A stretch of 64,000 nucleotides of DNA from Bacteroidota bacterium (lineage in GTDB: Bacteria > Bacteroidota > Ignavibacteria > UBA10030): the NCBI GenBank assembly GCA_035506075.1, contig DATJQB010000290.1:50-64049 (forward strand), written 5' to 3'. How positions within the stretch are numbered: position 1 is the stretch's first letter; every line of letters begins with the position of its first letter. The position numbers and the translations under genes are program-made. Below, piece after piece: positions 51,292-64,000 of this stretch. The notes under the pieces are model-generated. The model was given only the letters and a program-made list of their open reading frames with translations, did no database searches and was not told the DNA's origin.

Positions 51292-53196
51292 TCAGATTGA
51301 ATCGCCGCGAAGAAAGCGGATGCGTTTGCGCGCTTCCTCCACGTAGAGGGACGTTGGATAGTTTGCCAGAACTTCCTCGTACGACTCGATCGCTTTCTTC
51401 TTGTCCTGCAGTTTTGATTCATACACTTCGGCGACGCGCATTTGCGCCCGGTCACGGAGAACGCTCGTCGGCATGTCGTTGATCACTCTGCGGAACATGA
51501 CGAGTGCATCGTTCACCTTGTCGAGGAGCAACTCCATCTCCGCGCTGCGCATCGCCGCGTCGTCCGCAAGCGTGGAGGCGGGATAGTGTTCGAGAACCGA
51601 CTGGAACCGGCCGAGCGCTTCAGAGTATTTTCGTTGGCGCACGAGCAGTTCCGCAGCCGCAAATTCTGTGAGTGCCTGCGGGCCGGCGCTCTTGTTTTCC
51701 TGGATAAAATACAGCAGCTGTAACGCGTCGTTGGCCAGGTCGTTGGTAATATTCGCGCTGATGTGCTGAAGCGAAGCACAGCATGAATCAAACCGCGCCT
51801 CGAAGTAATCGAGCTCGGCCAGCCGGAAGAGAATTTGGTCGCGGTACTGATCCGGCGCACCCCTCACAAGTCCGCTGTATTCCTTGCGGGCTTTCGCGAG
51901 ATCGTTTCTTGCGATGTCTACCTCGGCAAGACTCAGTGTCGCTTCGTACACGAGGGTTGCGCTGAACGGCATGGTCCGAATCCTGTCAAACGCGGCGGCG
52001 GCACCATTGAGATCGAAGAACCGCTGGAAGCGAATGACGCCGATCCTGTAGAGCGCCTGCATGGCGGTCTCGCTGTTGGGCTGATCCTTGATGAGCGATT
52101 CATACAGTGCCAGCGATCCCTGGAATGTCGGTTGGGTTTCTGAAACGACCGCCCCGCGCTGATCGGAAACGGGCTGTTGTGCGACACGCTGCGCGAGGGT
52201 ATCGTTCAGGGCGCTCAACTCCTCAATTGCCCGCGCATATCCGTACCTCGCATACATGAGAATGTTAAGAGGCGCCTTCCCTTCAATAACCTCTCTAAAC
52301 GCTTTTGCGGCTGTAAGATATGCGTGCTCCTGTGCCGCCCGCTGTGCGAACTGATAAATCTCGAGTCCGTTTGCTTTCGTCAACCGATCGATGACCTGAT
52401 ATTCTCCAAGCGCCGCGTCAAATTGTTTTCCCTCCATGTACAGCCACGCAAGGACGGAGTGCGTCGGCACGTCGTTGGGTGTCCGCACCGCTTCCGCCTT
52501 GAACACGGCCAGCGCCGCAATCCTCCCGTCTTCGTGTCCGGTGAAACCGGACAGCCGCGACTGGATGTACGTCACCTGCTGAGGATTCGTCCGGAGGATC
52601 TTTACAAACTCCAGGGTCGCTGCATCGTATTGGTGAAGCGCTCCGTAGAGTGTGGCAAGGTCTTCCATGAAAAGGCTTTGATTCGCTGCGGCAACACGCC
52701 CCATCTTGTAGACATCAATGGCCCTGTCGTACTGCCGATGCTCAATCAGTTGAGAGGCGATTAATCGGTACAGGTTGGCGTTCTTTGGGTCCTTTCGAAG
52801 CACCACCTGCCAGACCGAATCAGCGGTCTGTGGCTGTCCCGACAAATCGTACAGGCCGCCCAGAATGGACAGAAGATTTTCGTCTGATGGATTCACCCGA
52901 AGCTGTTGACGGACAAGATCGATCGCCTTGTCGTATTGCTTCAGTTCCGTGTAGCCGCGCCGCAATCCCTCCAGCACAACAAAGTTTTGAGGTGACGATT
53001 CAAGCAGTGATTCATACACAGTAACAGCGCGATCCCATTCGCCGGCCTGCTCGAAGCTCTGGGCAAGTCTCAGCTTCGCAACGACATCCGTCTGCTGGGC
53101 AACGGCGCATGACGCACACACAACGAGCGCGAACGCACAGCCATATGCGTATGCGCGCAGCGTTTGTCCGTCGATATGAAGTCCGGAAATTTTCAT
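51292..53196 (-). CDS. Secreted multi-TPR-repeat protein
   Basis: 634 aa. Signal-like YGCAFALVVCASCAVAQQ. More than 12 TPR-like 34-aa units (e.g. AGEWDRAVTVYESLL..., LKQYDKAIDLVRQQLRVNP..., FDAALGEYQVI...). Confidence 0.7.
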   Translation of the reverse strand: MKISGLHIDGQTLRAYAYGCAFALVVCASCAVAQQTDVVAKLRLAQSFEQAGEWDRAVTVYESLLESSPQNFVVLEGLRRGYTELKQYDKAIDLVRQQLRVNPSDENLLSILGGLYDLSGQPQTADSVWQVVLRKDPKNANLYRLIASQLIEHRQYDRAIDVYKMGRVAAANQSLFMEDLATLYGALHQYDAATLEFVKILRTNPQQVTYIQSRLSGFTGHEDGRIAALAVFKAEAVRTPNDVPTHSVLAWLYMEGKQFDAALGEYQVIDRLTKANGLEIYQFAQRAAQEHAYLTAAKAFREVIEGKAPLNILMYARYGYARAIEELSALNDTLAQRVAQQPVSDQRGAVVSETQPTFQGSLALYESLIKDQPNSETAMQALYRIGVIRFQRFFDLNGAAAAFDRIRTMPFSATLVYEATLSLAEVDIARNDLAKARKEYSGLVRGAPDQYRDQILFRLAELDYFEARFDSCCASLQHISANITNDLANDALQLLYFIQENKSAGPQALTEFAAAELLVRQRKYSEALGRFQSVLEHYPASTLADDAAMRSAEMELLLDKVNDALVMFRRVINDMPTSVLRDRAQMRVAEVYESKLQDKKKAIESYEEVLANYPTSLYVEEARKRIRFLRGDSI

Positions 53197-53346
53197 TGCC
53201 CTTCGTACATCAACTTATCAAAAAACGCCGCCGTAATCAATGAAACGCCCCTCCTCCTCTTTGAACACATGAGATGATGCCAGATGTTCCGCGCCGCGGA
53301 CTTCGGTTGATTTGCCCTGCTATTTTGCTTACCTTTTTTCTACATC

Positions 53347-54501
53347 ATGGGTGCTTGCCAGAACATCGCGATCCTTGGCTCAACGGGCTCGATTGGTACC
53401 AGCAGCCTCGAGGTGATCAGGAATTTTCCGGACCGCTTCCGGGCAACGTACCTTACAACGAACCGCAACATTGAGTTACTGCAGCAGCAGATTGCTCAGT
53501 TTCGGCCGAAGGGTGTTGTCGTCCTCGACGAGCGCAGCGCTGCCGAGCTCCGCTCGCGCCTGGATGGTTCCGTGGAGATACTCTCCGGTGCATCGGGGCT
53601 TGAGAACGTTGTCACGCGGGATGATGTCGACACCGTCATCAGCTCGCTTGTAGGCTTCGCGGGACTCAAGCCGACGATTGCCGCCATCCGGCATAAAAAA
53701 CGGATTGCCCTGGCGAACAAAGAGACGCTTGTGGTCGCCGGCGGCTTCATCACCTCTCTCGTCCGCGAATACGGTGTCGAGCTCCTGCCTGTCGACAGCG
53801 AGCACAGCGCGATTTTCCAGTGCCTTGTCGGCGAGGACCGGTCGAACGTCGCCAAGCTGCTTCTGACCGCATCGGGGGGGCCCTTTCTGAACATTCCTTC
53901 GGAGTCTTTTGCTTCGCTGACCGTTGAAGCCGCTCTCAATCATCCGAAGTGGAAGATGGGGAACAAAATCACGATCGATTCGTCGACGTTGATGAACAAG
54001 GGACTGGAAGTGATCGAAGCCCGCTGGCTGTTCGGACTCGGCGGTGACCGGATTCATGTCGTCATTCATCCGCAGTCCATCATCCATTCAATGGTTGAAT
54101 TTGTCGACGGCTCCGTGAAAGCGCAGCTCGGTATTCCCGACATGAAGATCCCAATCCAATATGCGCTCACCTATCCCGAGCGTTGGCCGATGAACGGCTC
54201 ACGGGTGGATTTCCCGGAACTTCAGTCGATGACATTTTTCAAGCCGGACCGGGACAAGTTCCGCTGCCTCGGGCTTGCCTACGATGCGCTCGCCTTGGGG
54301 GGCACGGCACCGGCGGTCCTCAATGCCGCCAACGAGGTTGCCGTTCACTCGTTCCTGAACCGGGGAATCTCATTTGACAAGATCCCGACTGTCATTGAGC
54401 GGGCTTTGGCGCTTCACAAAACACGCACAAATCCTGATATCGACGATATCATTGAAGCCGATCGCGAGACGCGGGCTTTCGTTGGAACTCTTTTGAATTG
54501 A
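53347..54501 (+). CDS. dxr: 1-deoxy-D-xylulose-5-phosphate reductoisomerase
   Basis: 384 aa. NIAILGSTGSIGTSSLEV (NADPH fold), LANKETLV, DSEHSAIFQCL, PKWKMGNKITIDSSTLMNKGLEVIEA. Confidence 0.9.
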   Translation: MGACQNIAILGSTGSIGTSSLEVIRNFPDRFRATYLTTNRNIELLQQQIAQFRPKGVVVLDERSAAELRSRLDGSVEILSGASGLENVVTRDDVDTVISSLVGFAGLKPTIAAIRHKKRIALANKETLVVAGGFITSLVREYGVELLPVDSEHSAIFQCLVGEDRSNVAKLLLTASGGPFLNIPSESFASLTVEAALNHPKWKMGNKITIDSSTLMNKGLEVIEARWLFGLGGDRIHVVIHPQSIIHSMVEFVDGSVKAQLGIPDMKIPIQYALTYPERWPMNGSRVDFPELQSMTFFKPDRDKFRCLGLAYDALALGGTAPAVLNAANEVAVHSFLNRGISFDKIPTVIERALALHKTRTNPDIDDIIEADRETRAFVGTLLN

Positions 54502-54516
54502 TAACGGTAGTATAGA

Positions 54517-54535
54517 GGGGCCCCGGCCGGGGTTT
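54517..54535 (+). terminator. Weak palindromic GC element between dxr and rseP (possible attenuator/terminator)
   Basis: ggggccccggccgggg is self-complementary and followed by ttt. No long U-tract. Confidence 0.25.
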
Positions 54536-54567
54536 CCGGCTGTCGTTCACGACTATTTGAGACCTCG

Positions 54568-55881
54568 ATGGATTTCTTTCCGACACTTTTCTACTTCCTT
54601 GTTGTCATCGGCATCCTTGTGCTTGTACACGAGCTTGGCCATTTCCTCGCGGCGAAATTTTTCGGCATGCGTGTCGATCGCTTCAGCATAGGGTTCCCTC
54701 CGCGAGCGTTCGGAAAAAAAATCGGCGACACAGACTATTGCGTTTCCTGGATCCCCATCGGCGGTTATGTGAAGATCGCCGGCATGGTGGATGAGAGTTT
54801 CGATACGGAATTTCTGAATGAGGACCCGAAGCCCTGGGAGTTTCGCGCCAAACCGATCTGGCAGCGCCTGATCGTGATTTGCGCCGGCGTGATCATGAAC
54901 ATTCTTCTCGCCGTCGTCATCTTTTGGGGCATCATCATCTATCAGGGCAAAACCGTGAAGCCGGTGACGCAGATCGACCATGTCACGGCTGAGAGTCCGG
55001 CTGCCAAGGCTGGTTTTCTCGCCGGCGATATCGTCGTCAGCGTGAATGGTGAGTCGGTCACCTACTGGGAAGATGTGGAGAATCTCTTATACTCCGACGC
55101 TCTTTCCGGGAACCTCGTCGTCCAGCTTACAAGGGGCGGCGAACCGACCACGTTGAAGATCGGCAGGCCTCTGACTTCAGAAATTCTTGAAAACGGACTC
55201 GGGCTTTACCCGGCGGGAATTGTCGCTCTTGTTGGAAGCGTCGAATCGGGAAAGCCGGCAGACCAGGCCGGACTCAAGGCGGGCGACATCATTCTTGAGA
55301 TGGGAGATCAGAAAGTTTCCTTCCACTCTCTGCCTGAAATCGTGAAGCGTTACGCTGGCAAGGGAATCACCCTGAAGTGGAAGCGCGACGGAGAGATGAA
55401 AGAGGCCCAAATTGTTCCGACTGCGGAAGGAAAAATCGGCGTCGGCTTTACGCCTCTTTACAACGGTCCGCACGCAAATATTCACTATTCTCCTCTTGCT
55501 GCCCTGCCGGAAGGAATCAGGGATGCCTGGAACATGAGTTGGATGAATTTGAAGAGCATTTACCAGATTTTCGTCGGGCGTGTCTCGCTTTCCAAGTCGG
55601 TCGCCGGTCCGATCATGATCGCCAAGATGGCAACCCGATCCGCAGAAACCGGCATCATTAATTTCCTCGGGTTCATGGCTCTCCTGAGCATGAACCTTGC
55701 CATCCTCAACCTCTTTCCCTTTCCCGCCCTCGACGGCGGACATGCGATGTTCCTCATCTACGAAGGAATCTTCAGGCGCGAGATACCTGCGAAAGTCAAG
55801 ATCGCGTTCCAACAGGTCGGCTTCGTGCTTTTGCTTGTTTTTATGGCCTTCGTTCTGTATAATGACATCATTCGTTTTTGA
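54568..55881 (+). CDS. rseP: RIP metalloprotease RseP (site-2 protease, M50 family) with PDZ domains
   Basis: 437 aa. HELGHFLAAKFFGM (HExxH in TM1). Two PDZ-like segments (AAKAGFLAGDIVVSVNG, ADQAGLKAGDIILEMGD). LNLFPFPALDGGH (LDG motif). Confidence 0.88.
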   Translation: MDFFPTLFYFLVVIGILVLVHELGHFLAAKFFGMRVDRFSIGFPPRAFGKKIGDTDYCVSWIPIGGYVKIAGMVDESFDTEFLNEDPKPWEFRAKPIWQRLIVICAGVIMNILLAVVIFWGIIIYQGKTVKPVTQIDHVTAESPAAKAGFLAGDIVVSVNGESVTYWEDVENLLYSDALSGNLVVQLTRGGEPTTLKIGRPLTSEILENGLGLYPAGIVALVGSVESGKPADQAGLKAGDIILEMGDQKVSFHSLPEIVKRYAGKGITLKWKRDGEMKEAQIVPTAEGKIGVGFTPLYNGPHANIHYSPLAALPEGIRDAWNMSWMNLKSIYQIFVGRVSLSKSVAGPIMIAKMATRSAETGIINFLGFMALLSMNLAILNLFPFPALDGGHAMFLIYEGIFRREIPAKVKIAFQQVGFVLLLVFMAFVLYNDIIRF

Positions 55882-55970: not shown

Positions 55971-57164
55971 ATGAAAAAACTCTTGTTGGCATGTGGGGAG
56001 AGTTTCTTGCGCATCGGCGCGGTCGTCGTAATAATCGCTCTTGCGTTCATCTTCACTCCCTCCTCCTATTCCCAAACAACTTATAGTCTCTCGTTCGAGG
56101 GACTCCCGAGCGGCACGGTCGACCTCACGCAATATATCGGCCTTGACAGAAAGCTGAAGACAAACGTCGCCGGACAGGTTCTTCATATCTCCGTGGCTCC
56201 GCCGCTGACGAAGACTCAGAAAGTCCGGCTCAGCATTGCCGTTTCGGGATCCGGGTCCACCGTGACAGAGTGCAATCTCAATCCGATTGCCACGGCGACC
56301 ACGGTCGCCTTTGATATCTCCGGAGCCGGCCGCGATCTCGGTGCTTCCGATTTCACAGGCAACTCGGGAATCGGCGTACAAACGTCCGATACGAAACAGT
56401 CGTGCATCGACGCTCTCGCCGACAAGATGACACAGGGTGTCGCTGCGATTCCCGCGGGTATTTACACAATCGCTGCCACTCTGAACGATGCCAACACGGG
56501 AGCCATCCTCGGATCGACAACGTATCCGATTGTCATCCTCGGCCAATCCACGAACGAGGCGACCCTGAACCTCACGTCGCCGACAAACGGAGAGCAGGTC
56601 ACCCAGTCGGCCAGCGTGATTTTCCAGTTCGAGAACTCCATTGGCGGGCGTCTGCTCGTGTTCGAACACTCCACCCTCAGCCAGTCTCCCGACGATGCAA
56701 CGGCGGATCTGAACTCACCGTTGAAAATGGTCGATGTGACATTCGACAGCAAACACACGGGAAGCAATCAGGTCAACGCTGTGAATCCCGGTGTCGCACT
56801 TCGTCCCTGGACGGCGGGCAAGAAATATTCTTGGTACTTCCTTGGTACGTTCGGTAACTCGAGCGCCGCCGCATCGGGAAGTGCTGTTACGAAGAAGAGT
56901 CCCATCTGGTCGTTCACTGTTGTTTCGAGCGACCCGCTGTATGCCCGGCTTGTCGATGCACTTTCGGGCGCGCCTGAACCGGTTGGCTCTTCATATCAGA
57001 ATCTGGCGAGCTCCGGATACCTGTTGAACCTCTCGAGTACATTTTACCTCCAGGAAGGAGATAACGCTTCCCCGAAGCCGATCCAGCTTCAGGATGTGTT
57101 GACGTTCCTGAGAAGCCTTGCGGGCAAAAATGTCCAGATCAGGGCTGGGCTTGTCACTCAATAA
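55971..57164 (+). CDS. Secreted hypothetical protein (first gene of FecR/OMP/CHASE2-cyclase operon)
   Basis: 397 aa. Signal/anchor MKKLLLACGESFLRIGAVVVIIALAFIF. Ser/Thr/Gly-rich beta-type composition. No recognised domain. Confidence 0.6.
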   Translation: MKKLLLACGESFLRIGAVVVIIALAFIFTPSSYSQTTYSLSFEGLPSGTVDLTQYIGLDRKLKTNVAGQVLHISVAPPLTKTQKVRLSIAVSGSGSTVTECNLNPIATATTVAFDISGAGRDLGASDFTGNSGIGVQTSDTKQSCIDALADKMTQGVAAIPAGIYTIAATLNDANTGAILGSTTYPIVILGQSTNEATLNLTSPTNGEQVTQSASVIFQFENSIGGRLLVFEHSTLSQSPDDATADLNSPLKMVDVTFDSKHTGSNQVNAVNPGVALRPWTAGKKYSWYFLGTFGNSSAAASGSAVTKKSPIWSFTVVSSDPLYARLVDALSGAPEPVGSSYQNLASSGYLLNLSSTFYLQEGDNASPKPIQLQDVLTFLRSLAGKNVQIRAGLVTQ

Positions 57165-57187
57165 CTTCTTGGATGGAGGATTCTCCG

Positions 57188-58282
57188 ATGAAACGATCAT
57201 TCACACTTGTCATTATCGTTATTGTCGCGGCTTTGCTTGCTGCTCCGGCGTGGAACTTCCAGGACAAGAAGCCGATCGCGGCCTACATCATGAAGGTCGT
57301 GAATAACGTTGAGCGGCGGACCGGTTCGACCCAGGGTTGGTCGAAGGCCGTGCTGCTCTCCGAGCTGAAGGCGGGCTACGAGGTGCGCACACAAGAGAAG
57401 TCGTTTGCGATGATCAAGTTCGCAGACGAATCAAAAGTCTCTGTGCGCGAGAAGTCGATCATTACGATCTCCGGCGAAGTCTCCGGAGGGAAAATTCTTA
57501 ACCGCGATGTCTACATCGAGCGGGGCAGAACTTCGTTCGAGGTGAAGAAGCAGGAAACAGAACAGTTTCGGTTTACCTCCCCGATTTCCGTTGCATCCAT
57601 TCGCGGAACCGAGGGCGGGACAGGCTTCGATCCGGGCCTCGGACAGGCCGATATCACGATCATCACCGGAATTGCAGAGTTTTCGCACACCTCCAGCGGC
57701 TGCAAAGTGGATGTTACGCCTGGCATGACCGGGCGGGTCGATCGGGGTGGCGGTTGCAAGGTCGACACTGCGTCGCACAACGAGCTCAACAATAACAATC
57801 CACATTCAAACGTGAACCAGGGTGTCGTCGACTCGACACAGCAGGGCGGCAACAATAATCAGCCCCCGCCAGGTTCATCGACAAAGTTCACACTGACGCT
57901 GCCCACAGGTGCCACGTTGACCTCCGGCGTTCAGGCTCAGCTCAACGTTGCCCTGTCGAATCCTCCCGTGGAGATTCAGCAGGTCACACTCTTCTACAGA
58001 AATCAGGGCGATCCTTCGTATAAGCAGCTCCAGATGACGGTGAAGGAACTCACAGCCACGGGCACGGTTCCCGCCAGCGACATTCATGCAGGAACAGCGA
58101 AGAAGTTCGAGTATTACTTCTCCATGCGCGGTTCGAATGGAACAACCTACACGTTCCCGGACACGAATCCCGATTCGTCTCCCTACATCCTGCCGGTGAA
58201 ACCGAAGGTTGTCTATCTCAAGATTCCGGTGACGACACCAACTGGAGAACAACGGTACCTGCAGATCTCCTACGAGGAGTAA
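57188..58282 (+). CDS. FecR-domain protein with C-terminal Ig-like domain shared with the downstream OMP
   Basis: ORF 57173..58282 trimmed to MKRSFTLVIIVIVAALLAAPAWN. The FecR (PF04773-like) pattern is GYEVRTQEKSFAMIKFADESKVSVREKSIITI...RDVYIERGRTSFEV...FRFTSPISVASIRGTE. The C-terminal ~110 aa (FYRNQGDPSYKQLQM...KKFEYYFSMRGSNGTTYTFPD) resembles the N-terminus of ORF 58425..60893. Confidence 0.6.
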   Translation: MKRSFTLVIIVIVAALLAAPAWNFQDKKPIAAYIMKVVNNVERRTGSTQGWSKAVLLSELKAGYEVRTQEKSFAMIKFADESKVSVREKSIITISGEVSGGKILNRDVYIERGRTSFEVKKQETEQFRFTSPISVASIRGTEGGTGFDPGLGQADITIITGIAEFSHTSSGCKVDVTPGMTGRVDRGGGCKVDTASHNELNNNNPHSNVNQGVVDSTQQGGNNNQPPPGSSTKFTLTLPTGATLTSGVQAQLNVALSNPPVEIQQVTLFYRNQGDPSYKQLQMTVKELTATGTVPASDIHAGTAKKFEYYFSMRGSNGTTYTFPDTNPDSSPYILPVKPKVVYLKIPVTTPTGEQRYLQISYEE

Positions 58283-58424
58283 TCCTGCCGTACCGCTGCG
58301 GTATTGAGATTCTCGACGTTGCTCTTACAACAAGGACGGCAGGTGAAGAGCCTGCCGTCCCTGTTTCAATTCACTTTGTCAATTCGCCTTTCCTTTTCTC
58401 ATTCTAACATCACGGAGACCCCTC

Positions 58425-60893
58425 ATGAATCGCGCCCTTGCTTCCCTTGCGACCGTTCTCTGCCTTCTGTGCGTGGCGTTCCTGGCTGCCGAGGCACAGG
58501 TGAGTTCTGTCGTACTGCGTGTGAACGCGCCGGTTGTGAGTCAGAACCAGCCCCTGCCAATCAGCGTCGACTTCACGCCGAGCGGCACCGTCGAACGCGT
58601 CTTACTGCGGTACCGCGGATTCGGCGAATCCGAATATCACCAGCAGGAAATGCTGCTGGCGGGCAACTCGGCGTCGCTCACAATTGGCGGACAGTACGTG
58701 CTCCCTCCTTACATTGAATACTACGTGATCGTTCAAACATCCGGGGGACACACCGAGACGTACCCGATTGAAAACGCCGAGTCAACTCCGCTGAAGGCGA
58801 CCATCAAGCCCGTAGATCCGAAATCCCTCGAAGTGCGGCTGCTGAGTCCCGAGCAGGGGGAGACAATTGCAAGCGAAGACCTCGTGATTGCCGTGTCTCT
58901 GTACTATGCGTCAGAAAACGTCGACAGGAAGGCGACAAAGCTGTTCCTCAACGGCATTGACGTGACGCCGCAAGCCCTTTTCTCCGACGATGTGATCCTC
59001 TACTCACCCGCGAACTTTCCACGCCCCCTGAGCCTCGGCGTGCAGTTTCTCCGCGTCGATCTGTATGATACAAAGGGCGCTCTCTATCATTCCGTTGAGT
59101 CGAACTTCAACCTTTCAACGGCTGCGGCCATTGCAGCGCGCGAATCGCGCTTGAAATTCGGCATCGACGGACAACTGGAATACAGGAACGAAAACGTCCA
59201 GTCAACACAAAACACATTTGCTCGCGGCCAGGTGCGCGCCCTCGGGTCGCTTGGCTCGTCGTTCAATTTCGGATCCAACATCTTCCTGACGAACGAAGAG
59301 AAAACCGATCGTCAGCCCCAGGACCGTTTCTCGGCGTTTGCTGATGCCGATTTCCTCAAAGTCCAGGTGGGTGATGCGTTCCCGAAGTTTCCAACGAACA
59401 TTGTGAGCGGCAAGCGCGTGCGTGGGGTTTCAGCCAATCTCTTCCTGAAGTTCTTCAACGTCGACTTTGCGTACGGCCAGACAATGCGCAGCATCGAGGG
59501 CATTGCGCTTCGGGATACAACGTTCAAAGATTCCACCGCCCTGCTCTCACGGCCTTCAAACTCAATTCTGAAATCGGGTCTTACCTACTCGCTGTTCCAG
59601 GCTGGCACGTACACACGCAACTTCTTTGCCATCCGCCCGAGTTTTGGCTCCGGAGAGAATTTCCAGTTTGGTCTGACATACATGAATTCGAAAGACGATA
59701 TCTCGTCCATCCGGTATGGTCTCACGCCGCAGCAAAACCTCGTCGCAGGATCCGATCTGCTGATCGCCTTTGACGACCAGCGCTTCAGACTGGAAGGACA
59801 GGCAGAGGTGAGTTTGACAAACACCGATATTACAAGCGGTTCGTTCACGCAGGCGGATTACGATCTCATGGCGGGCAAGAACGACCCAACACTCACAGCG
59901 CAACAACGCAGCGATCGCCAGAAAAGCGCTGATGATCTGAAGAAGATCGCCGACGCCGCCAGCAAGTTCATGACGATCAACCAGTATTTGTTCCCCATCA
60001 ACCCTGTGGGGCACGGGCTCCCGGGCGTCGCGTACGACGGCATGCTGACGATGAATTATTTCAACAACTTTATCCGTGCACAGTATTATCAGCGCGGTAA
60101 CGCGTACCAGTCGTTCGGAAACGAATTCCTGCAGGCCGACATCAAGGGGCTTTCGCTCTCCGATCGCATCCGCATGTTCCAGAACAGGGCGCTCCTCAGC
60201 CTCTCCTATGAACAGCGCCAGGACAACACCGCGCAAACAAAGGTCGCCACCACGACGTATGGAAACATGAACGGGTCCCTCACGGTGTTTCCATCAAACA
60301 CGCTCCCCTCGTTTACCGTCGGGTATGGAATCCTTTCGCGCAAGAGCGATGCCAGCCTTGTCGACTCCCTGCAGCGGTTCTATGCTGCGGACGACAAGAC
60401 AAACCGCATCTCGTTCCAGCTGAACTACGATTTCAATGCTGGCGCGCGCCACAACCTGTCGCTCGGCATGAGCCTGTCGGACAAGACGGACAACCTGCCG
60501 GTCGGTCTCAACCGGGGTGAGCAGAAGAACAACAGTTACTTCGGCTCGCTGACGTCAAACTTCCAGTTCCCGTTGCAGACAACGCTCTCGTTCAACACAA
60601 ACCTGAGCTCGAACGCCGACCTGACCAATCCGAACCTTGCACTGCTACCGATGATTGAGTTCAAGCTGACCTCGTACGGTCTGAATGCGCAATACAGGCT
60701 GTTGGAGGACAAGATGCGGATCACGGCGGGGATCAACACGACAACCGGCGACCTGAACAGGACGCTCATGCAGGGCGCCGTGGACTACACGGTCACCGCC
60801 AATCACACGCTGGCGTTGCAGTACGACTACATCCAGAACTCGGGGTTGAAAGACGACAACGTGATGAGTCTCGTCTATCGATTTAACTTCTGA
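58425..60893 (+). CDS. Large outer-membrane beta-barrel protein of unknown family with N-terminal Ig-like domains
   Basis: 822 aa. Signal peptide MNRALASLATVLCLLCVAFLAAEAQ. N-terminal domain (LLRYRGFGESEYHQQEML...IEYYVIVQTSGGHTETYPIE) is similar to the FecR-protein C-terminus. C-terminal ~550 aa of alternating amphipathic strands ends ...MSLVYRFNF (aromatic terminus). Confidence 0.6.
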   Translation: MNRALASLATVLCLLCVAFLAAEAQVSSVVLRVNAPVVSQNQPLPISVDFTPSGTVERVLLRYRGFGESEYHQQEMLLAGNSASLTIGGQYVLPPYIEYYVIVQTSGGHTETYPIENAESTPLKATIKPVDPKSLEVRLLSPEQGETIASEDLVIAVSLYYASENVDRKATKLFLNGIDVTPQALFSDDVILYSPANFPRPLSLGVQFLRVDLYDTKGALYHSVESNFNLSTAAAIAARESRLKFGIDGQLEYRNENVQSTQNTFARGQVRALGSLGSSFNFGSNIFLTNEEKTDRQPQDRFSAFADADFLKVQVGDAFPKFPTNIVSGKRVRGVSANLFLKFFNVDFAYGQTMRSIEGIALRDTTFKDSTALLSRPSNSILKSGLTYSLFQAGTYTRNFFAIRPSFGSGENFQFGLTYMNSKDDISSIRYGLTPQQNLVAGSDLLIAFDDQRFRLEGQAEVSLTNTDITSGSFTQADYDLMAGKNDPTLTAQQRSDRQKSADDLKKIADAASKFMTINQYLFPINPVGHGLPGVAYDGMLTMNYFNNFIRAQYYQRGNAYQSFGNEFLQADIKGLSLSDRIRMFQNRALLSLSYEQRQDNTAQTKVATTTYGNMNGSLTVFPSNTLPSFTVGYGILSRKSDASLVDSLQRFYAADDKTNRISFQLNYDFNAGARHNLSLGMSLSDKTDNLPVGLNRGEQKNNSYFGSLTSNFQFPLQTTLSFNTNLSSNADLTNPNLALLPMIEFKLTSYGLNAQYRLLEDKMRITAGINTTTGDLNRTLMQGAVDYTVTANHTLALQYDYIQNSGLKDDNVMSLVYRFNF

Positions 60894-60915
60894 ACCTGAT
60901 TCCGGAAGGGCGACC

Positions 60916-63117
60916 ATGGCCTCACCTTCGTTTAAGAAGAGCATCCTCCCAATTCTCATAAAAGCGGGAATCGGACTGGGGATCGGCATCCTTGTCGCCC
61001 TCATCCGCCTCTGGGACCCCGGCTTCATTCAGAACGTCGACCACCTCACGACGGACTACCGCTATCAGCAGCGTTACGATCGCCAGAAGGACAGCTCGGA
61101 ACGGTTCGATCGCAATCGCGCCAACGTCATCATCGTTGGAATCAAGGACAAGGACCTTTCCGCTCTTCCCGAGACGTTTCCCTTTCCGCGATCCTATTAT
61201 GCCCACGTGATTGAAAATCTCGAACACGCCGGCGTCCTCGCTGTGGTGCTTGACGTGACGTTTGATTCCAAGCGCGATAGCGCGACCGACGCCGAGTTCG
61301 AGGGTGTGCTTGAAAAGTACAACAACATCGTGCTTGCAGCGAAAGCGGAAGAGTCCACGGGGGGCGGAAAATATACGTTGAGCACCATCAACCGCTCGTA
61401 CGGCAACTACTTCTATAAACCCGGCCGGCGCGTAGGCCTCTCCAACATCCCGGGGAAAGACCGGGACGATGTCGCCCGCCGATACTACCCCATGCTCGCA
61501 GTCGGCAATTTTCTCACGCCCACACTCGGATTTGCAGCGCTCAACGTTGCGTTCCATCTTCCCGACACGGCCATCGCCGATGTCCGCCCGCCGAATCTTG
61601 TTCTCGGCGACCGCGTGATCCCCACGATCGACGGCCGGTCGTTCATGCTCAACTATTACGGCCCGAGCGAATCATTCCGGTACCTTTCGTTCACCGAGGT
61701 CATCGACGATTCGACGTTCAAGACAAAAGAAGAACTCGAGGTCGGCGCCGATATCAATCAATTTGATCTCGACGATGAAGTCCGCGCCGCGCTGAAGGAC
61801 AAGATCGTTATCATCGGATCGGCCATGCCCGAAGAGCGCGACTTCCACACGATCCCGCTCATGAACCCCGATGGTACGTACCTGATGTTCGGGGTAGAGA
61901 TCCACGCAACGGCAATCCAGAACGTCCTCGATCAAAGTTACATCCGCCGGGCCGACCCGACGCTTGAACTTGGACTGATTATCTTTCTCGCTCTCGTGTC
62001 GTTCCTTGTCATCCTTCGCGTCCGGCAAATCAAGGCCCGCTTTGTTGTCCTCCTCGAGTTGGCGTCACTCTTGATTGCAGCGCTCTTCATCGTTGCCGTC
62101 TTCGAAATAGCGGTCCGCTCCTTTATGAACGACAGCACGCTTGTGAACATTGTCTACCCGAGCCTGGCTGTTGTCCTCGCGTATCTTGGAGCCGCGGTTT
62201 ATCAATATCTCGCCGAGCGCCAGCAAAAAGCGCTGATCAAGAATGTGTTCAGCAAGTACATCAGCGCGGCGGTTGTCAATGAACTCGTCGCGAATCCGGA
62301 AAAGGCGAAGCTCGGTGGTGACCGCCGCGAGCTGACCGTCTTCTTCTCGGATATCGCCGGCTTCACAACCATCTCGGAACAATTCTACACGCGCCCCGAA
62401 GGTCTTGTGGAGTTGCTGAACGAGTACCTGGACGAGATGACGGGGATCGTCCTGAAGCACGAAGGAACGCTCGATAAGTACGAGGGGGATGCCATCATGG
62501 CGTTCTGGGGAGCCCCGATTGCTCAGAAAGACCACGCTCTCCGCACCTGCCTCGCATCGCTTGAAATGCAGCAGCGTCTTGCAGCGCTGCGCCCGAAGTG
62601 GAAGAAGGAAGGGCGTCCCGCTCTCGAGGTGCGCATCGGCATTAACACCGGCACGATGATCGTCGGCAATATGGGGGGACGCGACCGGTTCGATTACACG
62701 GTCATCGGCGACAGTGTGAACCTCGCCTCACGCCTTGAAGGAGCAAACAAGCAGTACGGATCCAATGTGATGATCAGCGACATGACCTACCACCACGTCA
62801 AAGGCCAGGTGCTGGTCCGCGAGCTCGACCTGATCCAGGTCAAGGGGAAAACCGAGCCGGTCAAGGTCTGGGAGCTTCTCGGAAAGGCGGACATGGAATT
62901 GACCGAGGACCAGAAGCAGTCGCTTGAAATCTATCACGAGGGGCTACGACTTTACCGCGCCCGGAACTGGCAGGAGGCGATTGCGTATTTCCAGCAGGCA
63001 AAGCAGCTTGACCCGGCTTGCCGTGTTGCCGACATTTACGAGCAGCGCGCGAATCTCTACCAGCTTAATCCGCCCCCCGCGGATTGGTCCGGCGTCTTTG
63101 TGATGACAACAAAATAA
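60916..63117 (+). CDS. CHASE2-sensor class III adenylate/guanylate cyclase with C-terminal TPR-like tail
   Basis: 733 aa. N-terminal TM plus periplasmic CHASE2-like region (~300 aa). Three TM helices. Cyclase core (LTVFFSDIAGFTTISEQ..., KYEGDAIMAFWGAP..., RIGINTGTMIVGNMGG...YTVIGDSVNLASRLEG). Tail LEIYHEGLRLYRARNWQEAIAYFQQAKQLDP. Confidence 0.85.
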   Translation: MASPSFKKSILPILIKAGIGLGIGILVALIRLWDPGFIQNVDHLTTDYRYQQRYDRQKDSSERFDRNRANVIIVGIKDKDLSALPETFPFPRSYYAHVIENLEHAGVLAVVLDVTFDSKRDSATDAEFEGVLEKYNNIVLAAKAEESTGGGKYTLSTINRSYGNYFYKPGRRVGLSNIPGKDRDDVARRYYPMLAVGNFLTPTLGFAALNVAFHLPDTAIADVRPPNLVLGDRVIPTIDGRSFMLNYYGPSESFRYLSFTEVIDDSTFKTKEELEVGADINQFDLDDEVRAALKDKIVIIGSAMPEERDFHTIPLMNPDGTYLMFGVEIHATAIQNVLDQSYIRRADPTLELGLIIFLALVSFLVILRVRQIKARFVVLLELASLLIAALFIVAVFEIAVRSFMNDSTLVNIVYPSLAVVLAYLGAAVYQYLAERQQKALIKNVFSKYISAAVVNELVANPEKAKLGGDRRELTVFFSDIAGFTTISEQFYTRPEGLVELLNEYLDEMTGIVLKHEGTLDKYEGDAIMAFWGAPIAQKDHALRTCLASLEMQQRLAALRPKWKKEGRPALEVRIGINTGTMIVGNMGGRDRFDYTVIGDSVNLASRLEGANKQYGSNVMISDMTYHHVKGQVLVRELDLIQVKGKTEPVKVWELLGKADMELTEDQKQSLEIYHEGLRLYRARNWQEAIAYFQQAKQLDPACRVADIYEQRANLYQLNPPPADWSGVFVMTTK

Positions 63118-63143
63118 CCGTTTACTGTCAGGATCTGCATTCA

Positions 63144-63180
63144 AAAGCCGGAAGTGGTTCTGTTCCGGCTTTCTCTTTTT
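63144..63180 (+). terminator. Rho-independent terminator after the cyclase gene
   Basis: aaagccggaa-(gtggttctg)-ttccggcttt followed by ctcttttt, 27 bp after the stop at 63117. Confidence 0.6.
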
Positions 63181-63182
63181 CC

Positions 63183-64000
63183 ATGGACATTCTCAACCAA
63201 CTCTCTCCCCGCCGCTTTCGAGCCGTCGACGACCTGATCGCTTTCATTTCGATCTATGACGACGCCCGACGCACGCGCGGGTATCGGCTCCTGCTTCGTT
63301 CCCACGCAAAACAAATCCGGAACGCCGTCTGTGTCGAGGGCGGCTGCGGCCTGGGAATCTTCGCGGCCGAGCTGGCGCGACTGGGAGCTCGCAAAGTTTA
63401 TGCTGTAGAACAAAACCCCCTTCTTGCCGACCTGGCTGCACAACGGATCGCGAAGCTCCCGGCGCATCTTGCGCGCCGCATCGAACTCGTGAATCTCCCG
63501 CTGCAACGCTTCAAACCTGCAGAGCGCGTGCATGTGCTCGTCCATGAGTTCTTCGGACAGTTGCTGTACGACGAAGACCTTTGGGTGCTCGATCGCCTCC
63601 GGTTCAAACCCGATTTGGTGCTCCCTGACGGCGGAGAACTTCGCGCGGGGACACTCTCCTCCACGCTGTACAGAGATCGATTCGTAACACCGGCAGTGAT
63701 TGAGAAGCTTGATGGAGCTCTTGTTTCCGGCCTGTTTGAGGGAGAATCAAGAGACCTGCGTGAGTCTGTGTTGCGGTGGAGTTTCGGAAAGGGATTGGTG
63801 CACCTGCGACACAACCTGAGCCGCCATCGGGGCGACCTGGTCTGCATGGGACTTGTTGTAACTCACAACGGAAAGCGCGTGTGTGAGGCGGGCGAACACG
63901 GGAATTGGTCGTACGTGTGGACGAAACGGAGCGGAAATGAACTGAGCTTTCGATTCAGGAAGGCCCCCGGCGGCGAAGGAATGGACTGCTTCTTCGGCTG
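63183..64000 (+). CDS. PRMT-like class I SAM-dependent methyltransferase (5' complete, 3' truncated by window end)
   Basis: Read by hand from ATG 63183 (not in the ORF track because no stop occurs before the window end). MDILNQLSPRRF...VCVEGGCGLGIFAAELARLGARKVYAVEQNP matches motif I/post-I of protein-arginine-methyltransferase-like enzymes (VLDVGxGTGILSxFAAKAGAxKVYAVE). VLVHEFFGQLLYDE resembles the PRMT double-E loop region. Confidence 0.55.
   Translation, partial: MDILNQLSPRRFRAVDDLIAFISIYDDARRTRGYRLLLRSHAKQIRNAVCVEGGCGLGIFAAELARLGARKVYAVEQNPLLADLAAQRIAKLPAHLARRIELVNLPLQRFKPAERVHVLVHEFFGQLLYDEDLWVLDRLRFKPDLVLPDGGELRAGTLSSTLYRDRFVTPAVIEKLDGALVSGLFEGESRDLRESVLRWSFGKGLVHLRHNLSRHRGDLVCMGLVVTHNGKRVCEAGEHGNWSYVWTKRSGNELSFRFRKAPGGEGMDCFFG

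Follow-up and report, generated by a model that had tools for sequence, protein, structure and literature searches.

Does a large outer-membrane barrel, encoded just upstream of a CHASE2 receptor cyclase, pass information across the cell envelope, and through which partners would it do so? The question is raised by four consecutive plus-strand open reading frames (ORFs), here called genes 1 to 4, in a 64,000-nt stretch of contig DATJQB010000290.1 from an uncultured Bacteroidota bacterium of the Ignavibacteria type; the whole of this stretch is referred to as the window. An initial annotation had described them as an envelope-signalling operon for a secreted protein, a FecR-domain protein, a large outer-membrane barrel and a CHASE2 adenylate cyclase, and had regarded the operon as its best candidate for an undescribed signalling system. 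The ORFs were found exactly at the coordinates given there:

55971-57164, plus strand: gene 1, secreted immunoglobulin (Ig)-like protein, 397 aa (ORF)
57173-58282, plus strand: gene 2, periplasmic FecR-domain protein, 369 aa (ORF, Pfam)
58425-60893, plus strand: gene 3, large outer-membrane barrel protein, 822 aa (ORF, AlphaFold2 model)
60916-63117, plus strand: gene 4, CHASE2 receptor adenylate cyclase, 733 aa (ORF, Pfam)

The gaps between genes 1-2, 2-3 and 3-4 are 8, 142 and 22 nt, respectively, and not 23-143 bp as had been reported. On balance we favour the view that the four genes form one envelope-spanning sensory device, a relay from the cell surface to cyclic AMP (cAMP), and the module is most likely a split, partly non-homologous version of the NsrA-CyaK system of Sinorhizobium meliloti.

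The gene neighbourhoods of the window and of fourteen related loci (labels L001-L016) were compared, a scan of contigs with the single sequence having given 4 close loci and a distant-profile homology search 15 proteins. All four protein families are conserved across the module. The same four-gene order is present in L001-L008, in which the barrel is 44-86 % identical, and also in L009, L010, L011, L012 and L015, in which all flanking genes are different (uvrA/TonB-dependent transporter (TBDT), acetyl-CoA carboxylase/NAD kinase, DUF1501, feoAB, murA/htpG). The barrels of these five distant loci are 26-32 % identical to that of the window in local alignment, and 23-37 % identical to the distant query P0363. 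In L014, a gene 1-like gene, the FecR gene and the barrel gene follow each other in the same order, after which the contig ends. As the four-gene order is kept despite unrelated flanks, the genes make up a self-contained module, and the expectation that the neighbourhood would be conserved in related genomes was thus borne out. In the distant loci most neighbouring genes of the module are separated by -11 to 30 nt, and such tight spacing agrees with translational coupling.

The first member of the module had been described as secreted, in agreement with the single N-terminal hydrophobic, signal-peptide-like segment found at residues 11-29. Gene 1 has no significant match in Pfam or NCBIfam, none of its 95 homologues has a Pfam domain, every one of them is named 'hypothetical protein', and a search with the gene 1 profile against Protein Data Bank (PDB) sequences gave nothing significant. 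The AlphaFold2 (AF2) model (predicted local distance difference test score, pLDDT, of 79) consists of two tandem Ig/FN3-like beta-sandwiches and a C-terminal helical region, and the fold search returned generic tandem-Ig matches only. The proteins in position 1 of the distant loci are too diverged to be detected together with gene 1 by a hidden Markov model; in profile-profile comparison they are homologous to it (hhalign probability 98.9 %, E 1.8e-17, 327 columns), so that gene 1 is to be counted as part of the module, its Ig-like product being, judging by sequence comparison, an obligatory fourth member. Across the same loci, the identity to the window drops fastest for gene 1 and slowest for the cyclase: for genes 1 to 4 it is 70, 89, 86 and 87 % in L008, 60, 69, 72 and 80 % in L007, and 28, 41, 54 and 62 % in L003. 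The fast evolution of gene 1 fits a specificity-determining or surface-exposed subunit.

Gene 2 contains the FecR domain that had been predicted for it: PF04773 matches residues 70-166 (profile positions 2-94 of 97) with E 5.8e-8 and 33.5 bits, above the Pfam cut-off of 24. This FecR core (nt 57380-57670) comes after a signal peptide and is followed by an N/Q/P-rich linker, an Ig-like domain (about aa 240-347) and a C-terminal beta-hairpin (aa 348-369, nt 58214-58279). The Ig-like domain is homologous to the first N-terminal Ig domain of gene 3 (BLASTP E 1e-8, 30 % identity over 87 aa). FecR hits were present, in precomputed results, in the partner genes of all related loci in which the gene was complete enough to scan. 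When the FecR proteins of 10 related modules were aligned, the core and the terminal hairpin were conserved in all of them. Between the two, the distant loci have no Ig copy, the window has 1 and L003 has 4, so that the extra element conserved throughout is the hairpin and not the Ig domain. The hairpin reads YLKIPVTTPTGEQRYLQISYEE in the window and SIEIEIQDPDGQNRKVIIIEYEE in L009, and has the pattern of a strand, a D/T-P-D/T-G turn and then K.[IV].[IV].[FY].E, the Ig copies being inserted ahead of it. FecR genes with this hairpin are at L009:7256-7975, L010:7299-7985, L012:7328-7996, L015:3623-4294 and L016:2-214. The hairpin is a candidate docking element. The profile of gene 2 gave nothing significant when searched against PDB sequences.

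A FecR-type anti-sigma factor was considered for gene 2 and rejected. Just about 30 residues, i.e. the signal peptide, precede the periplasmic part, so that gene 2 is not an anti-sigma factor; it has neither a cytoplasmic anti-sigma segment nor a transmembrane segment. A gene for an extracytoplasmic function (ECF) sigma factor lies near the module in L001 and L002 only and is not conserved.

In gene 4 the CHASE2 domain and the class III cyclase domain of the initial annotation both pass the Pfam cut-offs (PF05226, CHASE2, 1e-43, aa 25-361, nt 60988-61998; PF00211, Guanylate_cyc, 7e-25, aa 472-649, nt 62329-62862), and a TPR_2 match follows in the C-terminal, cytoplasmic part (aa 673-701). The first transmembrane segment is at 10-28 and three others lie within 349-428, which places CHASE2 in the periplasm, as had been supposed. 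The closest solved relatives are the bacteriophytochrome-adenylate cyclase fusion 6fht (cyclase part) and CyaB 3r5g, both with E of about 2e-43. The cyclase motifs FSDIAGF, DKYEGD and YTVIGDSVNLASR, with the metal Asp, the Lys/Thr pair, the Asn and the Arg, are present; the check covered 7 complete module cyclases whose sequences matched the regular expressions. A Lys/Thr pair is typical of class IIIb adenylate cyclases. The catalytic residues of gene 4 are intact and of the adenylate type, an active cyclase is predicted, and by its domains, topology and motifs the protein falls among the CHASE2 receptor class III adenylate cyclases of the CyaD1/CyaD2/CyaK type. At its extreme C-terminus, after the TPR, it has the motif DDW(D/N/S)G(V/I)F.(L/M)T.K (nt 63070-63114), which is also found in the cyclases of L001, L003 and L009-L012 and not in the shorter cyclase of L015. 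The Leptospira and Legionella plasmid hits covered the cyclase domain only and were uninformative.

Gene 3 is recorded in the database as 'MAG TPA: hypothetical protein VMH23_11290 [Bacteroidota bacterium]' and has no significant Pfam or NCBIfam match. Its description as an 822-aa outer-membrane barrel is supported by the AF2 model (23-sequence alignment, mean pLDDT 81) and by the C-terminus ...YRFNF, a typical ending of outer-membrane proteins. The signal peptide (aa 1-24), with the one hydrophobic N-terminal segment, is followed by two Ig-like beta-sandwiches (aa 30-128 and 138-231, nt 58512-59117), a short helix and the barrel, which spans aa 243-822 (nt 59151-60890), has about 26-28 strands in the model and contains an inserted helical stretch at aa 476-512. 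The top Foldseek match was the 26-strand MtrB (E 8e-10, TM score 0.41-0.50, 9 % identity), and ushers (PapC/FimD), TBDTs and LptD ranked behind it. All these matches are generic, covering at most about 400 of the 580 barrel residues at 8-12 % identity, and the modelled barrel fits no specific known barrel family. A search of 1.84 billion representatives with the profile of the barrel family gave 495 clusters at E<=1e-30 and 954 at E<=1e-10, i.e. the family comprises at least 495 clusters at 50 % identity. The full-length architecture is kept down to 22-27 % identity, and six divergent full-length members had no significant Pfam hit. Gene 3 is thus a member of a large barrel family without a Pfam or NCBIfam model. 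The polar barrel residues Q297, N300, R301, D317, R333 and R355 are conserved family-wide; assuming periplasmic N-terminal domains, and from strand parity only, they would be located near the extracellular ends of strands 4-7.

More specific identities of gene 3 were also considered and set aside. No plug (PF07715), STN domain or TonB box was found that would make it a TonB-dependent transporter or transducer. The order dxr-rseP-bamA is common in Proteobacteria; gene 3 has no POTRA or Omp85 signal and its barrel is of the wrong size for BamA/Omp85. With the MtrB/PioB porin-cytochrome proteins it shares the fold class only, as there is no MtrB_PioB Pfam hit and no cytochrome gene; the FecR and Ig-like neighbours of gene 3 contain 2-3 Cys each. 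In the giant proteins P0338, P0346 and P0357 (3000-4000 aa) the N-terminal Ig-like domain of gene 3 occurs about 18 times in tandem, and P0338, the one that was scanned against Pfam, also has Beta_helix and PKD domains. The N-terminal Ig domain seems to represent an uncatalogued Ig-like repeat family that adhesin-like proteins share.

In its general form the logic is not undescribed, as had been supposed, since NsrA-CyaK already links a barrel and a FecR domain to a CHASE2 cyclase (PMC7529298, PMC13001267). The pairing of FecR with CHASE2 is not new either: clustering of the two is known in Campylobacterota (PMC9239204) and Burkholderiales (PMC5192318). NsrA is an outer-membrane protein required for the activation of CyaK and CyaD1/D2 by a host signal, and the signal perceived via NsrA is the ribosomal protein uL2 (PMC7529298, PMC13001267). 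Its residues 600-1200 have been described as a surface-exposed beta-barrel (PMC7529298). A FecR-domain gene, smc02177, has been studied with smc02178 in the CyaD1/D2/K-Clr cAMP pathway (PMC5498481). In the pSymB locus, nsrA (1200 aa; L013:7228-10830) is directly upstream of cyaK and abuts it. As regards smc02177, we take it to adjoin cyaD1, going by the locus tags. The Pfam matches of NsrA are an N-terminal FecR domain (E 2e-15) and then TPRs, followed by about 600 aa without a match. The barrel of NsrA leans weakly towards TonB-dependent receptors (E 0.013), and one orthologue is so annotated. The labels of the orthologues vary between 'FecR domain-containing protein', 'TonB-dependent receptor' and 'signal perception protein NrsA' (sic), and the barrel part of NsrA has no Pfam model.

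In the module as in NsrA-CyaK, which has cAMP as its output, a barrel and a FecR domain are encoded immediately upstream of a CHASE2 class III adenylate cyclase of the inner membrane. The two systems have homologous FecR domains (Pfam matches in both; E 4e-5 in BLASTP of gene 2 against the N-terminus of NsrA) and homologous CHASE2-cyclase proteins, and the barrel portions of gene 3 and NsrA are similar in size, about 580-600 aa. Unlike NsrA, in which the FecR domain, the TPRs and the barrel are fused, the module has FecR and barrel as separate polypeptides, and its periplasmic spacer is made of Ig-like domains instead of TPRs. The cyclase of the module, unlike the NsrA-CyaK arrangement, carries a TPR on its cytoplasmic end, and gene 1 is not known to have a counterpart in the NsrA system. 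The host phyla also differ, the module belonging to Bacteroidota of the Fibrobacterota-Chlorobiota-Bacteroidota (FCB) group and NsrA-CyaK to Alphaproteobacteria. Although gene 3 is adjacent to a CHASE2 cyclase gene, it was not assigned to the NsrA family, as the barrels are not detectably homologous, and FecR is on a separate polypeptide.

A trans-envelope logic with a cyclic nucleotide as output, as proposed in the initial annotation, is a reasonable and the most economical reading of this arrangement, although within it we infer which proteins touch each other, which way the signal runs, what gene 1 does and what the cue is. Gene 3 would form its barrel in the outer membrane and extend its two Ig-like domains into the periplasm, the gene 2 FecR protein would be a soluble or tethered periplasmic coupler, and the gene 4 cyclase would be in the inner membrane with CHASE2 facing the periplasm. 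Gene 1 may be a variable accessory that confers specificity or binds the ligand, or else one that joins the barrel at the surface or as a plug. A change in the barrel, or in a complex of barrel and gene 1, would be brought about by a cue at the cell surface or in the outer membrane, and it would be transmitted to the FecR protein via the C-terminal beta-hairpin or, in the lineage of the window, via the Ig domain that this protein has in common with the barrel. The FecR domain would then engage CHASE2 and free the class IIIb cyclase dimer in the cytoplasm from inhibition by it, and cAMP would rise. De-repression is proposed for this step because CyaD1 lacking CHASE2 produces cAMP constitutively (PMC5498481). 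The Ig homology between genes 2 and 3 and the common FecR hairpin may be taken as hints of a physical link. The recurrence of FecR-CHASE2 adjacency in Ruegeria, Campylobacterota (PMC9239204) and Burkholderia (PMC5192318), and probably at smc02177-cyaD1 of S. meliloti, also supports such a relay.

Several observations weigh against the relay or parts of it. The 23-sequence profile of gene 3 showed no homology to NsrA (hhalign probability 0.07 %), and the 53-sequence profile of the barrel family compared with a 7-sequence profile of the NsrA barrel, built from rhizobial and Methylocystis orthologues, gave an hhalign probability of 0.09 %; as the barrels are not detectably homologous, NsrA is for the barrel a precedent by analogy only. 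The short FecR proteins of the distant loci lack the Ig domain, which can therefore not be a universal contact. In L016 the barrel gene (310-2883) is preceded by a FecR-type gene, identified by the hairpin motif, and no cyclase is present within 6 kb downstream of the barrel, which means that the FecR-barrel pair can occur without an adjacent cyclase. Furthermore, in the solved complexes (MtrB, LptD, ushers) barrels as large as this one usually translocate or sheathe other molecules, and a transport role would fit gene 3 equally well.

A role in secretion or surface assembly is the alternative that survives best, and we consider it rather unlikely. The barrel would export, sheathe or anchor gene 1, in the manner of an usher or of MtrB and LptD with their partners MtrA and LptE, the FecR protein would be a periplasmic adaptor or chaperone, and the cyclase would merely monitor or tune the process and receive no signal from outside. 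Gene 1 is secreted, is built of Ig domains like many surface proteins, and evolves fastest, as surface exposure predicts; the N-terminal Ig domain of gene 3 recurs in giant adhesin-like proteins, and the FecR-barrel pair of L016 lacks a neighbouring cyclase. The best fold matches of gene 3 are translocating or sheathing barrels (MtrB, PapC/FimD, LptD), but as noted these matches are all generic and partial, and neither an usher, MtrB_PioB or LptD signal in Pfam nor a chaperone, cytochrome or LptE-like gene accompanies them. In addition, the signalling enzyme is fixed in every context that shows the downstream side except one, and the known partners of the FecR domain are signalling proteins.

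Less probable still is a transporter with an attached sensor, in which the barrel would be an uptake channel for a large substrate and the FecR and CHASE2 domains would sense this substrate in the periplasm, in the way of TonB-dependent transducers. The barrel has no Plug, TonB-box or STN domains, neither TonB/ExbBD nor an inner-membrane transporter gene is conserved in the module, and gene 1 would be left without a role. That the genes are neighbours merely by lineage inheritance within a dxr-rseP housekeeping block is very improbable: a tetratricopeptide (TPR) protein gene, dxr and rseP are equally syntenic in the lineage of the window, so that synteny there is by itself uninformative, but in the five distant loci the four genes stay together without dxr-rseP or any other of these flanks, which effectively refutes such an explanation, the gaps are tiny or overlapping, and the FecR-CHASE2 pairing recurs in other phyla.

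Other systems share parts of this design with the module. The likeness to FecA-FecR-FecI seen in the initial annotation holds as a concept, i.e. an outer-membrane barrel that signals through a FecR periplasmic partner to the cytoplasm, with the FecR Pfam domain in both, but it is an analogy only. The barrel of the module, unlike FecA, has no Plug, TonB box or STN, gene 2 has no transmembrane or anti-sigma segment, and the pathway would end in a second messenger instead of an ECF sigma factor; none of the four genes gave Pfam hits to Sigma70_r2/r4, Plug, TonB_dep_Rec or STN. In Campylobacterota, a CHASE2 adenylate cyclase is clustered with a phosphodiesterase, a FecR-domain protein of the outer membrane and a TPR protein, and the authors have proposed the cluster as one pathway (PMC9239204). 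The module resembles it by gene content, with a CHASE2 cyclase beside a FecR-domain envelope protein, and differs in having no phosphodiesterase or separate TPR protein and in having the extra Ig-like protein. The 'BiofilmReg' operon of Burkholderia consists of a CreB-like response regulator, the LysM-FecR protein COG4254, a CHASE2 histidine kinase and DUF4136 (PMC5192318). In this operon, as in PA4035-4036 of P. aeruginosa and in the module, the gene for a periplasmic FecR protein lies directly upstream of one for a CHASE2 receptor; unlike the module, 'BiofilmReg' has a histidine kinase as its output, a FecR partner with LysM and no outer-membrane barrel gene. A FecR-domain gene is also directly upstream of a full-length CHASE2 cyclase gene on the Ruegeria sp. 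AD91A plasmid NZ_CP031947.1 (595276-598506; L023), where the pair is adjoined by a divergent exbB-exbD-exbD-tonB, and from this neighbourhood some FecR-CHASE2 systems may be TonB-coupled. In overall fold class and size gene 3 resembles MtrB and LptD (26 strands each) and PapC/FimD (24 strands), from which it differs in the 8-10 % identity, the partial overlap and the lack of any family-specific Pfam hit; the module is also without the cytochrome, LptE or chaperone partner genes of these systems.

Literature searches centred on FecR, CHASE2, NsrA/CyaK and the outer membrane gave no description of the split four-gene module or of the gene 3 barrel family. New in the module are FecR and barrel as separate proteins, the barrel family without a model, and the obligate, fast-evolving tandem-Ig protein. 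New is also a FecR protein with a conserved C-terminal hairpin and variable copies of the Ig domain of the barrel. Two protein families without a Pfam or NCBIfam model are thereby revealed, the barrels of about 800 aa and their partner Ig-like proteins.

CHASE2 is a widespread extracytoplasmic sensor domain of cyclases, kinases and diguanylate cyclases. We know of no CHASE2 ligand or activation mechanism; literature searches identified no ligand, and NsrA-CyaK is so far the only functional handle on the domain. That the same FecR-barrel-CHASE2 logic has been rebuilt in another phylum with a non-homologous barrel argues for the FecR-CHASE2 contact as the conserved core, and suggests that FecR-domain partners are a general input to CHASE2. 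If the relay exists, what CHASE2 senses becomes directly testable, and the module, with its separate and smaller components, lends itself far better than the 1200-aa NsrA fusion to expression, co-folding, co-purification and mutation. The module overturns nothing; it offers a tractable route to the question of CHASE2 activation. A bolder and more doubtful idea is that the Ig-like/FecR/barrel triad is an unrecognised TonB-independent trans-outer-membrane sensor and that CHASE2 is a docking domain for FecR rather than a domain that binds small ligands. This would explain the lack of a CHASE2 ligand in the literature, and one principle with interchangeable outer-membrane front ends would then apply to NsrA-CyaK, the Burkholderia LysM-FecR/CHASE2 kinase, the Campylobacterota cluster and the module.

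Upstream of the module are a divergent TPR protein gene, dxr and rseP, the latter encoding an M50 protease with two PDZ domains (block 51292-55881). This block is syntenic with the module throughout the lineage of the window (L001-L004) and not beyond. As the substrates of RseP include FecR-type anti-sigma factors, a functional link to rseP was considered; it was set aside, since gene 2 lacks a transmembrane anti-sigma segment and the adjacency to rseP is lost in all distant loci. From rseP to gene 1 the distance is 89 nt, with a strong AGGAGG ribosome-binding site before gene 1. No terminator was found in this 89-nt gap, and co-transcription with dxr-rseP, or read-through from them, is thus possible. 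Two hairpins accompany the module itself:

58334-58360, plus strand: GC-rich hairpin in the gap between genes 2 and 3 (RNA fold, comparison of relatives)
about 63143-63180, plus strand: terminator-like hairpin and T-run after gene 4 (sequence reading)

A terminator had been reported only after the last gene. The hairpin with its T-run is present there, with the sequence AGCCGGAA-N9-TTCCGGCT followed by the T-run; the automatic terminator scan skipped it because of the 9-nt loop, and it was read by eye. The word 'only' does not stand, given the second hairpin between genes 2 and 3. This one has a stem GGACGGCAGGT, a loop and GCCTGCCGTCC within 58283-58424, and the RNA fold of 58275-58430 has -45.8 kcal/mol and z = -3.1. 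The stem is invariant in L005-L008, and these relatives have a T-rich tail (TGCTTTTT); at the same position the distant loci have a gap of just 4-30 nt or a short overlap. The hairpin is predicted to be terminator- or attenuator-like and specific to the lineage of the window, in which the operon may be internally attenuated, and it is possible that such an attenuator raises the expression of genes 1 and 2 over that of genes 3 and 4. Just behind the hairpin after gene 4 is a methyltransferase-like ORF with its ATG at 63183 and a weak Methyltransf_25 match. In L016, in place of a cyclase, the genes downstream of the barrel encode LVIVD beta-propeller proteins with type IX secretion system (T9SS) sorting domains.

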